Positions 9,360 to 64,000 of a stretch of 64,000 nucleotides of DNA are shown piece by piece (the stretch's first letter is position 1; each line of letters begins with the position of its first letter). The stretch lies in assembly GCF_035084215.1 (NCBI RefSeq), contig NC_090353.1, forward strand, positions 36,394,001 through 36,458,000, written 5' to 3'. Origin of the DNA: Heptranchias perlo (Eukaryota). The position numbers were made by a program, and so were the translations under genes. Under the pieces are notes generated by a model. That model did no database searches. It saw only the letters and a program-made list of their open reading frames with translations, and was not told where the DNA came from.

Positions 9360-9900
9360 ACACAGGTACAGGAGTAGGCCATTCAGCCCCTCGAGCCTGT
9401 TCCATTCAATTAGATCGTGGCTGATCAGTATCTGAACTCCAGTTACCTGCCTTGGTTCTATATCCCTTAATGCCCTTCTCTAACAAAAATCTATCTATCT
9501 CAGTGTTGAAATTTTCAATTGACCCCCAGCCTCAACAGCTTTTTTGGGGGGAGAGTTCCAGATTTCCACTCCCCTTTGTGTGAAGAAGTGCTTCCTGACA
9601 TCACTCATGAACGGCCTGGCTCTAATTTTAGGGTTATTCCCCCTTGTTCTGGACTCCCCCCACCAGAGGAGATAGGGTAGATAGAGAGAAACTATCAAAT
9701 CCTTTAATCATCTCAAACACCTCAATTAGATCACCCCTTAATCTTCTATACACGGGGGAATACAAACCCAGTCTATGCAACCTGTCCTCATAATTTAACC
9801 CTTTAGCCCCGGTATCATTCTGGTGAATCTACACTGCGCCCCCTCCAAGGCCAATATCTCCTTCCCAAGGTGTGGGGCCCAGAGCTGAACGCATTACTCT
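9360..9900 (-). mobile_element. CR1-type LINE 3' fragment; contains the left end of the direct duplication (~9610)
   Basis: Minus-strand remnant [14 protein letters not shown] typical of CR1 ORF2 C-terminus; collinear with 41377 onward. Confidence 0.85.
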
Positions 9901-10069
9901 AAACTGCAGGGAGAACTGAATCAGGAAGAGGTCCCCCACGTTCCCCCTTCCCCCAGGCTACCCTTTCTGGCTTTAAACTTGGACAAAAAAGCCGACCAGC
10001 AGCCAGCAGGAGCCTTCACAGGGCAGTTATTTAGGAGAGGGAGAGGCACCAAGACCAGCGGCACCATCT

Positions 10070-10530
10070 AGCCGCGGCTCTGTGGCAGCACTGCAGCATT
10101 CGGAGTCAGAAGGTCGTGGGTTCGAGCCCCACTCCAGAGACTTGAGCACAAAATCTAGGCTGACACTCCCAGGGTCGGTACCGAGGGGGCGCCGCACCGT
10201 CGGAGGTGCTGTCTTTCGGAGGAGACGTTAAACCAAGACCCAATCTGTCCTCTCAGGCGGACGTAAAACATCCTCATGACGCTATTTCGAGGAAGAGCAG
10301 GGGAGTTCTCCCCGGTGTCCTGGGCTAATATTTATCCCTCAACCAACATCACTAAAACCGATTATCTGGTTATTACCTCATTGCTGTTTGTGGGATCTTG
10401 CTATGCGCAAATTGACTGCCGCGTTTCCTATATTACAACAGTGACTACACTTCAAAAAGTACTTCCTTGGCTGTAAAGCGCTTTGGGACATCCTGAGGTT
10501 GTGAAAGATGATATCTAAATGCAAGTCTTT
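10070..10530 (+). mobile_element. DeuSINE (duplicated at ~41840-42330)
   Basis: B-box GGTTCGAGCCC, body and tail. Confidence 0.8.
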
Positions 10531-10677
10531 CTCTAGCTAATCACTTAAAAAACATTTAATTTTTCACAGTCCAGAATCACAATTTCGACTATTAAAAATA
10601 ATTATATCCAGACTATTCCGGTGGTAATTTTGCTTTGTTTGGCCCCCAGATGGAGAGGGCGGGGAAACTTTGATCCG

Positions 10678-10683
10678 TTTATT
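10678..10683 (-). terminator. Candidate polyadenylation signal AATAAA of MPV17L2-A (42478-42483 in copy B)
   Basis: TTTATT on + strand ~120 nt past the stop codon. Confidence 0.5.
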
Positions 10684-60800: not shown

Positions 60801-61995
60801 TCCTTAGAGGCAGAGAATGGAAATGATTCTGGGTGTGGGGAATGTACGTTGTGAGGGAAGGCTGAGTGAGTTGGTTTTGTTCTACAGTAGTTGGGAAAGA
60901 GTGAACGTCGAGGCAAACTCAGTAAAAGTTTTCAAGGTTACGACGGTTCAAACCCCTGATCGTGAGGACACTATCTGATGCTGATAGTGTCCTGTCTGAC
61001 TCGGCCCATTCCTGCTCCATTCTAACACCAGGCCTCAGGCCCACTCCTGTTCCACTCTAACACCAGGCCTCAGGCCCATTCCTGCCCCACTCTAACACCA
61101 GGCCTCGGGCCCACTCCTGTTCCACTCTAACACCAGGCCTCGAGCCCACTCCTGCCCCACTCTAACACCAGGACTAGGGCCCATTCCTGCTCCACTCTAA
61201 CACCAGGACTAGGGCCCACTCCTGCCCCACTCCAACACCAGGCCTCGGGCCCACTCCTGCCCCACTCTAACACCAGGCCTCGGGCCCACTCCTGCCCCAC
61301 TCTAACACCAGGACTAGGGCCCATTCCTGCTCCACTCTAACACCAGGACTAGGGCCCACTCCTGCCCCACTCTAACACCAGGCCTCGGGCCCACTCCTGC
61401 CCCACTCTAACACCAGGCCTCGGGCCCACTCCTGTTCCACTCTAACACCAGGCCTCGGGCCCACTCCTGCCCCACTCTAACACCAGGACTAGGGCCCACT
61501 CCTGCCCCACTCTAACACCAGGCCTTGAGCCCACTCCTGCCCCACTCTAACACCAGGCCTCAGGCCCACTCCTGCCCCACTCTAACACCAGGCCTCAGGC
61601 CCACTCCTGCCCCACTCTAACACCAGGCCTCAGGCCCACTCCTGCCCCACTCTAACACCAGGCCTCGGGCCCACTCCTGCCCCACTCTAACACCAGGACT
61701 AGGGCCCACTCCTGCCCCACTCTAACACCAGGCCTCAGGCCCACTCCTGTTCCACTCTAACACCAGGCCTCAGGCCCGCTCCTGTTCCACTCTAACACCA
61801 GGCCTCGGGCCCACTCCTGCTCCACTCCAACATCAGGACTAGGGCCCATTCCTGCCCCACTCTAACACCAGGCCTTGGCGCACTCCTGCCCCACTCTAAC
61901 ACCAGGCCTTGGCCCACTCCTGCCCCACTCTAACACCAGGCCTTGGGCCCACTCCTGTCCGATTGTAACAATTTAATTGCTTTGCATCCAAACAG

Positions 61996-62059
61996 GAGGA
62001 ACTGGTCAATGCACAGATAAAACATTTGCATCTGGCAGAGGAGAAGAAGACGTTGGAAG
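61996..62059 (+). CDS. PLVAP: Probable downstream PLVAP exon (EELVNAQIKHLHLAEEKKTLE)
   Basis: TTGCTTTGCATCCAAACAG acceptor, AG|GTAAGC donor, phase 0 compatible with exon 3. Confidence 0.65.
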
Positions 62060-62107
62060 GTAAGCAGCTCGAACACTCGGCGCTCACTAGCAGTGTGACC
62101 CACACAC

Positions 62108-64000
62108 TGGAACAGATTCGGAGGTGACGCCACTTGGTAATCAATGTCTCATTTATTTAATAGTCAAATCAAACATGTGAAGGTATCAAATATTTAGACA
62201 ACAAAGATCAAAACAATATTTCCCCGTTTGATCTCTGGGCAGAGCTCGTAATTAAGTTGGAAATGTGGTCATTTCAAGTTTTCCCGCAGTGAGGTCGTGT
62301 TCCGGTAGTCAGCTGTTCTTCCGACTGCGGTGTCATCTTCAGAGAGCTCAGTGTTCTCTCGACAGAGTGACCTTCGCTGGATCCTCTGCCCTGAGCTCAA
62401 AAGACGTTGGGTTTTTATGCCCCCTTGACCGGAAACTCACACCATATATGGGACAACACTCATAAAATTCTTATAGATTAATGACGCTGTTTTTCAAAGA
62501 ATTCCAGATGTTTTGATGTTACTCATTTAATCACGAGACCCTTTTCAAGGTTGCATTGTCCAGCTATCGCAACAAGGTCCTGGTCTTGTCGCTATCTTTG
62601 GATTAATGTCTGTTTTGGTCATTGTTCCTCTTTTATCACATTGCTGCTCTGTCCAGCAGGGAGGGTGACGGGGTCAATCACCGGTCAAAGGTTAACAGTT
62701 TATAATTCAGCAAAATAAGCTGCACAGCCCGTACAGCATGATGGTGCGTAGTATTCTGAAAAAGATGTCACTTTTTCCCTATTTCCGATCTTGTTAAAGA
62801 TTCCCCACCTTGAGGAGGAGAAGACAAAGTCTTCGACCCCTCACTTATTTAATCAATCTGGTCCAATGGGGGAATGGTTTGGAATGACGCACATTCTGTT
62901 TTAACTCCGAGACCCACTGTGGACCCAGCAGGCAGACACTCTGAGGGATGTGGTAACCAGGATTTGTATAATCAGGAACTTCTTAAGTTGCCCTGTCAGT
63001 CCTAAACAGCCCCGCCTCCATCTAATGTTCCCGATAGCATGTTCAAGTACACTTTACGGCCAAATTTTACAACCACTCATAAGCTTTCTGTCTGGAGCGT
63101 AATGTTTACTTTCATTTTGTATCATTGTGGCCAAAATAGGCACCGATATCTTAGCCCCAATTTAGTAATTCTGGTTGGTGTAAAGCAAGACGTTAACCAT
63201 CAAACTGGAGATACGGCGCTGCCTTTTGTGTTGGGCCTCCTGTTAATTGTAACCTAATACCTTCCTCTCCGAATAAATGACATTGGTCCTTTTCAAATTC
63301 AGTAGTATAATTAGGGGATTCTTCATCCAGGGTGAAACCACAAGCTGGCCGTGCACTTTGTAAAACATCACATCTGCACAACCAGAATCCACTTTTCCTG
63401 GGATAGCAGGAAGTGTTTGGAGCAATCCAGATCCCTTCTATTTCCCTTTACTGATACCTTCGATCTTCGGATGATTTACAAATTCCTGACACATATCATC
63501 CTCGATCAAGCCCATCGATTCCACTTTCAATCTCGGTTTTACATCAGCAGGTAGCAGCGATATTGCAACTACCACGGGAATCAGTCGTGAAATCTCACCA
63601 GGGACACCCCTTGATCTGATATAACATCCCCTGTCTGCCTATTCTTTCCTTTCAGTAATCCCTCTATTTGCTTCTGCATTGTTTAATCTCGATCCTATTG
63701 TCTCTGTGAGTTCACCTGAATCTCTTCCCGATTGCACTTAGTAAAACTGTGAACAATTTCTCTTAGTGTGATTAAAAATCTACAAACATTCAATTACATA
63801 AATCAGAAGACAAAAGATACAGAAGGAAAAATTTAACAGAGCGGGAATAATCTCTGACTGCAAATTATAACAAGCCTCTTGTGTTTGCGTCACTACGAGT
63901 TCGTTCATGCATCTTTTCCTGCGCCTCCCATTTTAAAGTTTTAGTCTCAATTTTAGACCATGTCTGCACCGTCTGCACTCAGGCCTGGGGCAAGGGAATA
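62108..64000 (-). mobile_element. 3' LTR and internal region of the same ERV in the intact PLVAP copy
   Basis: Reverse complement of 31696-33888 with a 300-bp deletion. Confidence 0.9.

Follow-up and report, generated by a model that had tools for sequence, protein, structure and literature searches.

A direct and inverted duplication at the MPV17L2-PLVAP locus of the shark Heptranchias perlo

The stretch of DNA analysed here, hereafter the window, is 64,000 bp from the sharpnose sevengill shark Heptranchias perlo (RefSeq assembly GCF_035084215.1, contig NC_090353.1, positions 36,394,001 to 36,458,000) and carries MPV17L2, a mitochondrial gene, and PLVAP, a gene of blood vessels. Self-comparison of the window confirmed the order and orientation of five segments proposed in an earlier note made from the sequence: A, inverted P', B (a copy of A), single-copy S, and P. 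We hold with moderate confidence that this arrangement is a real germline duplication produced by replicative template switching, in one event followed by gene conversion. The class of rearrangement is known from human patients, and the locus is apparently an aged natural example of it in a slowly evolving vertebrate. The window contains no N, and the exons read from it match four H. perlo RefSeq proteins exactly (XP_067824650, XP_067824651, XP_067824648 and XP_067824649). The assembly is listed as VGP sHepPer1.hap1 in the available part of bioRxiv 10.1101/2025.02.26.637739. No description of this locus was found in the literature searched, most subscription papers lying outside that search.

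Segment order and junctions

The segments, as delimited by self-comparison, are:

9610..22604, no strand assigned: block A, first direct copy
22605..41376, minus strand: left arm P', an inverted copy reaching from intron 2 to intron 4 of PLVAP (partner in the window for 31696-41376, none for 22605-31695)
41377..49836, no strand assigned: block B, second direct copy
49837..55516, no strand assigned: single-copy segment S, PLVAP upstream region and exons 1-2
55517..64000, plus strand: right arm P in native orientation, containing exon 3 (57202-57899) and exon 4 (61996-62059) and continuing past the window end

Divergence was counted after tandem arrays had been masked. The direct pair (9610-22604 and 41377-49836) showed 137 mismatches in 6178 aligned non-tandem columns (2.2%), and the inverted pair (31696-41376 and 64000-55517) showed 91 in 6960 aligned columns (1.3%). 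Kilobase-scale matches of 96-99% are far above chance and above the ~65-90% of ordinary dispersed repeat copies. The earlier note had ended the A/B homology at 22595 and 49830; the duplication held, with its ends corrected to about 22604 and 49836. The inverted repeat around a 14-kb spacer was also found, the spacer being 14,140 bp and the right arm 8,484 bp inside the window, with a partner seen for 9,681 of the 18,772 bp of the left arm. The remaining 9,091 bp (22605-31695) are unpaired because the window ends; their partner would fall beyond 64000. A long terminal repeat (LTR) element shared by both arms and reaching 26436 backs the continuity of the left arm to that point. Segment S, as had been noted, holds PLVAP exons 1 and 2, judged by a Pfam PV-1 match and by exon reading.

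Both junctions, J1 and J2, sit at 3' tails of long interspersed nuclear elements (LINEs), one of which partly matches an open reading frame (ORF) coding for reverse transcriptase (RT):

22602..22675, plus strand: J1, the end of A and a 74-bp LINE 3' tail; putative 3-bp microhomology CAG, deduced from sister repeat copies
41129..41662, minus strand: J2, a chimeric LINE 3' tail (41129-41376 from Ep, 41546-41662 from Ea, 41377-41545 of uncertain parentage)
9357..9900, minus strand: Ea, the LINE 3' tail that is the A-side parent of J2; part matches the RT-coding ORF 35616-36602 at 74%, and a 16-bp micro-inversion lies at 9676-9691
55517..55764, plus strand: Ep, the 5'-truncated LINE 3' tail that is the P-side parent of J2 (self-comparison)

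At J1 the end of A (22604) is joined to the far end of P', whose P-side parent would lie beyond 64000; of five other copies of the J1 repeat, three have CAG before the equivalent position. The B-S boundary, unlike J1, shows neither a repeat cut nor microhomology. At J2 the start of P (55517) is joined to the start of A, so that the proximal ends meet in inverted orientation. Positions 41129-41376 matched Ep at 237/248, with two diagnostic indels, versus 215/244 for Ea, and J2 has private bases absent from both parents. The boundary at 41376/41377 in the earlier note stands as the exact end of P homology; on the A side, near-identity starts instead at ~41546 (41546-41662 matches Ea at 116/117). 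The interval between, 41377-41545, matched Ea at 144/169, including the 16-bp micro-inversion, and was matched at 116/123 by an unrelated copy of this repeat; this suggests that a third template took part, that the ancestral element was longer, or that conversion followed later. We take the LINE tails to be CR1-like, the analysis itself showing only similarity to an RT-coding frame. The micro-inversion (9676-9691 versus 41442-41457) has short inverted flanks and is located in the A-side repeat, beside J2; a hairpin was considered as its cause and dropped, the fold being no better than shuffles (z 0.03).

In the available text on human PLP1 rearrangements (PMC6902434), the class termed DUP-NML-INV/DUP arises by one distal-distal and one proximal-proximal switch and has three possible products; in the first, two direct copies of the proximal segment flank an inverted distal one. 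Pairs of LINEs or Alus in opposite orientation are reported at such junctions in humans. The window has the layout of the first product. At the sequence level two duplicated segments surround a single-copy segment, the far end of P lying beyond the window; the proximal ends are joined inverted at J2, with ~170 bp of uncertain parentage; and replicative signatures are present as the chimeric LINE tail at J2 and the putative 3-bp microhomology at J1. The DUP-NML-INV/DUP label given by the earlier note thus fits the definition in that text, including the opposite-LINE junction and the microhomology junction. Cases BAB8920 and BAB8934, as far as they are described in the same text, share with the shark locus two duplicated segments around a single copy, a proximal/proximal junction, and one switch that is chimeric between opposite-oriented LINEs with the other at microhomology; their distal/distal junction would correspond to J1. 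Unlike the fresh alleles of PLP1 patients, the shark arrangement is a reference-haplotype feature aged 0.6-2% with later insertions, and its copy number and single-event origin are a reading from one assembled haplotype. It is also small, with a 5.7-kb neutral segment, and involves ~88%-similar, presumably CR1-like tails rather than L1 or Alu.

The event would have begun with an ancestral head-to-head MPV17L2/PLVAP pair in the germline of the Heptranchias lineage, the replicating strand switching templates at LINE 3' tails. Synthesis would have run through MPV17L2 and ~2 kb upstream, switched strands at the 3-bp microhomology (J1), entering PLVAP intron 4, and proceeded backward as far as the start of intron 2. 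A second switch (J2), between oppositely oriented, ~88%-similar LINE tails downstream of MPV17L2 and possibly via a third copy, would have allowed synthesis to continue through MPV17L2 and the whole of PLVAP. The copies may then have aged, through retroelement insertions in one copy or the other (four in all) and, in MPV17L2-B, through a 5' deletion and relaxed constraint, and the inverted arms may have been partly re-homogenised by arm-to-arm gene conversion. Of the two template switches proposed earlier, the junction types were borne out; that they were the only two, and belonged to one event, is not established, given the unequal divergence of the pairs and the possible third template at J2. 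Adjacency of the two genes is probably ancestral. They are neighbours in other sharks: among six other species with both proteins, the accessions were consecutive in three, on contigs of equal length but non-consecutive in two, and without position data in one.

Gene content of the copies

What the earlier note called MPV17L2 blocks are indeed duplicated and, more precisely, hold two complete five-exon genes:

10801..20412, minus strand: MPV17L2 copy A, 219 aa, conserved version; exons 20412-20223, 18684-18523, 16758-16682, 15950-15822 and 10902-10801; identical to XP_067824650; polyA signal at 10683
42601..48300, minus strand: MPV17L2 copy B, 218 aa, open; exons 48300-48114, 47460-47299, 46449-46373, 45641-45513 and 42702-42601; identical to XP_067824651
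20408..21554, minus strand: putative 5' untranslated exon/intron segment of ~1145 bp, in A and deleted from B (A/B comparison)

Both copies have the family's Pfam domain (Mpv17_PMP22, E 8e-25 for MPV17L2-A), an open frame, intact canonical splice sites, a polyA signal and orthologue-level identity; the MPV17L2 profile matched no solved structures. The joint of the deletion in B (48298-48300 versus 20408-21554) makes a new in-frame ATG for MPV17L2-B, a promoter-proximal ATG being joined to codon 3 with the frame kept. The two copies keep CpG-rich promoter sequence, with observed/expected ratios of 0.83 and 0.80; the window as a whole has 0.43. Over 218 codons, MPV17L2-B and A are separated by 4 replacement changes and 1 silent change. 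The replacements, F76I, A77V, F159Y and D177Y, are all on the B lineage, and D177 and F159 are each conserved in 13 of 14 aligned proteins, the exception being B. In human cells MPV17L2 is required for mitochondrial ribosome assembly, according to the available part of PMC4117752. The changes in MPV17L2-B fit relaxed constraint, and the copy may have lost function.

The PLVAP exons, and the splice acceptor used with the left-arm pair, are as follows (TM, transmembrane):

53346..53708, plus strand: PLVAP exon 1, cytoplasmic tail, TM helix and start of the coiled coil (Pfam PV-1, E 2.9e-15)
55402..55462, plus strand: PLVAP exon 2 (exon reading)
57202..57899, plus strand: PLVAP exon 3, right copy, in the right arm
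61996..62059, plus strand: PLVAP exon 4, right copy, in the right arm
39050..39747, minus strand: left-arm copy of PLVAP exon 3, 698 nt without a difference from the right-arm copy; coiled coil, no TM segment (exon reading)
33937..34000, minus strand: left-arm copy of PLVAP exon 4, with the same sequence as the right-arm copy (exon reading)
20538..20540, minus strand: splice acceptor of both 'paramyosin-like' models, in a 31-mer found once in the window and deleted from B; the only acceptor giving X1 and X2

Exons 1-4 from S and the right arm form 395 open codons of an expected full-length PLVAP of ~434 aa, and have the TM helix and long coiled coil of the PV-1 family. Intron 1 apparently has a GC donor at 53709-53710, with which exons 1-4 are in frame. 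The left arm does hold inverted PLVAP sequence, as the earlier note claimed; what had been called the PLVAP 3' part is an internal fragment of exons 3-4 only, with no promoter, TM exon or detected last exon. In these exons there are 0 differences in 762 bases between the arms. A six-frame profile search of the window failed to detect the last PLVAP exon (best E 0.79, on exon 3), and tblastn was also negative; in leave-one-out controls the profile gave E<=3e-16 for 5 of 7 orthologues and was weak for the other 2. A C-terminal look-alike seen by eye near 25500 was unsupported as the last exon and was dropped.

The RefSeq 'paramyosin-like' gene of this shark is a PLVAP fragment. Its models X1 and X2 (XP_067824648 and XP_067824649) consist of PLVAP exon 3(-4) sequence with tails from the 5' region of MPV17L2-A: both splice left-arm exon 3 or 4 across J1 into the acceptor at 20538, and end as TM-less coiled-coil fragments with hydrophilic tails of 3 and 14 residues. 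The minus-strand order as assembled is MPV17L2-B, PLVAP exons 3-4, MPV17L2-A, and the trapped exons probably enter transcripts by read-through and are joined by splicing to MPV17L2-A, giving products that are most likely short, TM-less and non-functional. Alternative RefSeq isoforms are usually backed by transcripts. Exons 3+4 make up a phase 1-1 module of 762 nt. The MPV17L2 genes on either side lie on its strand, and introns 1 and 2 of each are phase 1; on paper, in-frame splices from B exon 1 or 2, or into A exon 2, yield open frames of 472 and 526 codons. The module is like those of exon shuffling, in which symmetric phase 1-1 units move; unlike them, the RefSeq models skip the in-frame splices. 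The locus displays together the later outcomes of such an event, a drifting spare gene, a trapped phase-symmetric exon pair modelled as splicing into its neighbour, and inverted arms that perhaps exchange sequence, and offers a small test case of whether direct and inverted copies of one event diverge differently.

Divergence of the pairs and competing explanations

Each pair has acquired copy-specific insertions:

11391..14606, plus strand: A-specific LINE insertion with endonuclease and RT frames (A/B comparison)
42749..43769, minus strand: B-specific 3' LINE fragment, 96.9% identical to the A-specific LINE, at another site and in opposite orientation (A/B comparison)
48848..49331, no strand assigned: B-specific 484-bp insertion of sequence like a short interspersed nuclear element (A/B comparison)
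35621..36684, plus strand: LINE fragment in the left arm only (arm comparison)

The A/B pair thus has three copy-specific insertions and a large deletion, and the arms one insertion; a 298-bp indel at 32100-32397 also marks one arm. An internal inversion was considered for the LINE matches at 13586-14604 and 43769-42749 and rejected, the flanking repeat not being inverted and the empty sites marking separate insertions. These four insertions and the 2.2% and 1.3% divergences argue against false duplication of haplotypes, and the duplication is probably real. An assembly artefact, in which two haplotypes or a chimeric join were placed in one contig, is in our estimate very improbable. Mosaics of low and high divergence and insertion polymorphisms do occur between alleles as well, and no full-length PLVAP protein of the species was found. 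An artefact would need two novel gap-free inverted junctions, one of them in a chimeric repeat with private bases, and the RefSeq models splice across J1 into an acceptor that only A has, a splice out of reach for a head-to-head pair. The RefSeq assembly of the species, a VGP hap1 one, also speaks against an artefact. It would also need divergence of ~10x the single shark value used, since A/B noncoding divergence is 106/5333 (2.0%) and the mean pi (nucleotide diversity) given for the epaulette shark in the available part of PMC10587355 is 0.002. At 7e-10 per generation, a rate from another species used for this point only, 0.7-3% corresponds to 5-21 million generations, or half that at the upper confidence limit; the duplication is not recent.

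The two pairs have not diverged equally. At single-copy sites the A/B pair differs at 80/3900 (2.05%) versus 37/4735 (0.78%) for the arms. A/B divergence is uniform at ~1.8% (one state, 106/5981), and the arms are a mosaic of a 0.4-0.7% background and three tracts of 5-7%. Such inequality requires arm-to-arm conversion, or else two events. Arm divergence was 63/2103 (3.0%) at columns no more than 300 bp from a large indel or from J2, versus 28/4095 (0.68%) farther off; the A/B pair had no such gradient (2.25% versus 1.93%). Micro-inversion and alignment-edge columns were dropped for this test, and exons also in one version; 5 of 995 circular shifts reached the observed arm gradient. This is the pattern expected if large indels disrupt conversion, as the available text of PMC3924837 leads one to expect, and conversion is described as acting between inverted arms in that of PMC11890787. 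The gradient is suggestive of arm-to-arm gene conversion having re-homogenised the arms in part. According to what is available of those two sources, conversion homogenises the arms of known palindromes, crossover inverts their spacers and large indels disrupt conversion. The shark locus is like them in having long inverted arms around a spacer; unlike them, its arms are 97-99% identical and carry a gene fragment, and one lacks the last exon.

Several points weigh against one event with conversion. A single event without conversion does not predict unequal divergence of the pairs. The arm gradient is carried by three tracts that are mostly multi-copy repeats, single-copy sites giving 1.41% versus 0.72% (p 0.048), and the list of indels was drawn up after the alignment had been seen. 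A 1385-column identical run in the arms was reached in 25 of 10000 permutations with exon 3 included and hot tracts removed, but its significance was gone without exons (2018/10000), and it was downgraded as proof of conversion. The changes in the hot tracts polarise symmetrically (12:12, 10:9 and 5:4); offered as proof against import from a third copy, this was rejected as non-discriminating. At J2, 41377-41545 is too diverged from A for the age of the duplication (14 substitutions in 174 columns, P ~1e-5), and 9.1 kb of the left arm are without a verified parent. No full-length H. perlo PLVAP was retrieved in a search of proteins of 139-445 aa or in one of 50% representatives (best match 71%), and 3 of 3 read-through candidates were absent, which leaves a last exon beyond 64000 unverified. 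The splices across J1 are those of RefSeq gene models, and 4 replacement changes versus 1 silent change are too few to test selection on MPV17L2-B.

The same divergences could be had from two events: an older MPV17L2 tandem duplication (~2%), between whose copies a younger inverted copy of PLVAP introns 2-4 (~0.6%) was inserted by repeat-mediated switches. The original tandem junction would have been erased, and the hot arm tracts would reflect exchange with other repeat copies rather than shadows of conversion. Uniform A/B divergence of ~1.8% versus 37/6003 (0.62%) in the arms outside four tracts is what this history would give, as is the greater load of insertions and deletion in A/B, and the hot tracts do lie mostly in multi-copy repeats. 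Yet it needs three junctions versus two and an insert that lands between both copies; all hot tracts adjoin large indels or the junction, and the identity of exons 3-4 also speaks against it. We prefer one event with conversion because of junction parsimony only, and regard two events as unlikely. A different ancestral state, which we consider quite improbable, would have PLVAP originally on the minus strand upstream of MPV17L2, with J1 ancestral and the last exon lost later, or else a larger multi-switch event that drew 22605-26435 from elsewhere. Accession order in other sharks does not give orientation, 22605-31695 has no partner in the window, and the right-arm end and the last exon lie beyond it. 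Against this, no last exon lies in the left arm between exon 4 and MPV17L2-A. A repeat is cut at microhomology at J1, which has no counterpart at the B-S boundary, and positions 26436-33889 are tied to the right arm by the LTR element that both arms share.

Possible spacer inversion, tetherin and other repeats

Recombination between the arms would give the third DUP-NML-INV/DUP product, with the spacer inverted, and such a flip is plausible. It would not be a neutral change, as the last PLVAP exon is missing from the left arm. The flip would place the PLVAP promoter and TM exon ahead of that arm, with its modelled splice into MPV17L2-A, and the promoter-bearing PLVAP would be stripped of its last exon, should this lie past 64000. 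With the first MPV17L2 exon skipped, the predicted fusion frames are PLVAP exons 1-4 with A exons 2-5 (open, 551 codons) and exons 1-3 with exons 4-5 (450 codons); the modelled acceptor would give a truncated PLVAP of 398 aa. A reading in which recombination between the inverted arms switches PLVAP, the flip producing by exon capture a doubly anchored, tetherin-like TM/coiled-coil/membrane-anchored protein, is extremely unlikely. Both RefSeq models use the out-of-frame acceptor; no flipped allele was seen in the single haplotype, nor any in-frame transcript.

The earlier note had also tied the duplication to the way in which TM-coiled-coil genes arise, PLVAP being a neighbour and relative of tetherin. 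In the available text of PMC10617486, tetherin, TMCC(aT) and PLVAP are three neighbouring genes that share a TM segment and a coiled coil, suggesting common ancestry. The shark locus is like that cluster in involving PLVAP; unlike it, the duplicate has no promoter, TM exon or cytoplasmic tail, and MPV17L2 is the gene 5' of PLVAP. The N-terminal TM helix is confined to single-copy exon 1 (best 19-residue hydropathy 2.44, versus 0.01 in the duplicated piece), and the short hydrophilic tails of X1 and X2 offer no C-terminal membrane anchor. The proposed relevance to tetherin was thus rejected for the assembled orientation, and as assembled the locus says nothing on how tetherin arose. The window showed no recognisable tetherin-like gene, inspection of 1-9356 turned up no gene, and Rfam gave 0 matches in the window.

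One further element is shared by the arms:

26436..33889 (62107-64000 in the right arm), plus strand: old, decayed LTR retroelement in PLVAP intron 4, with LTRs 88% identical; it predates the duplication and has a weak zinc-knuckle match (E 0.011) at 28646-28861

It starts ~50 bp past exon 4, its internal frames are short and broken, and later repeats have inserted into it. A primer-binding-like stretch at ~26946-26963 resembles a tRNA-Arg site. The young LINE family with endonuclease and RT (11391-14606, 42749-43769 and 29773-30119) has copies 94-97% identical, two of which inserted independently <~450 bp apart in the same intron of A and B, in opposite orientations. Decayed repeats at ~49868-50000, 50211-50419 and 24685-24890 resemble Penelope-type elements; the latter two match each other at 79%.

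Tandem arrays are numerous. A single 67-bp unit recurs at 8465-8702, 15556-15749, 23682-24098, 38296-38670 and 45170-45426 in differing copy numbers, and intronic arrays of 44, 35 and 28 bp changed copy number between the duplicates (17316-20109 and 47007-48000; 34039-34608 versus 61003-61957; 39842-40247 versus 56644-57107). Large minisatellites with units of 21, 25, 32 and 52 bp lie at 1500-2982, 45-801, 51747-52930 and 7789-8092, respectively. The 21-bp array yields long spurious open frames, and the 32-bp array lies ~400 bp upstream of the PLVAP start codon.

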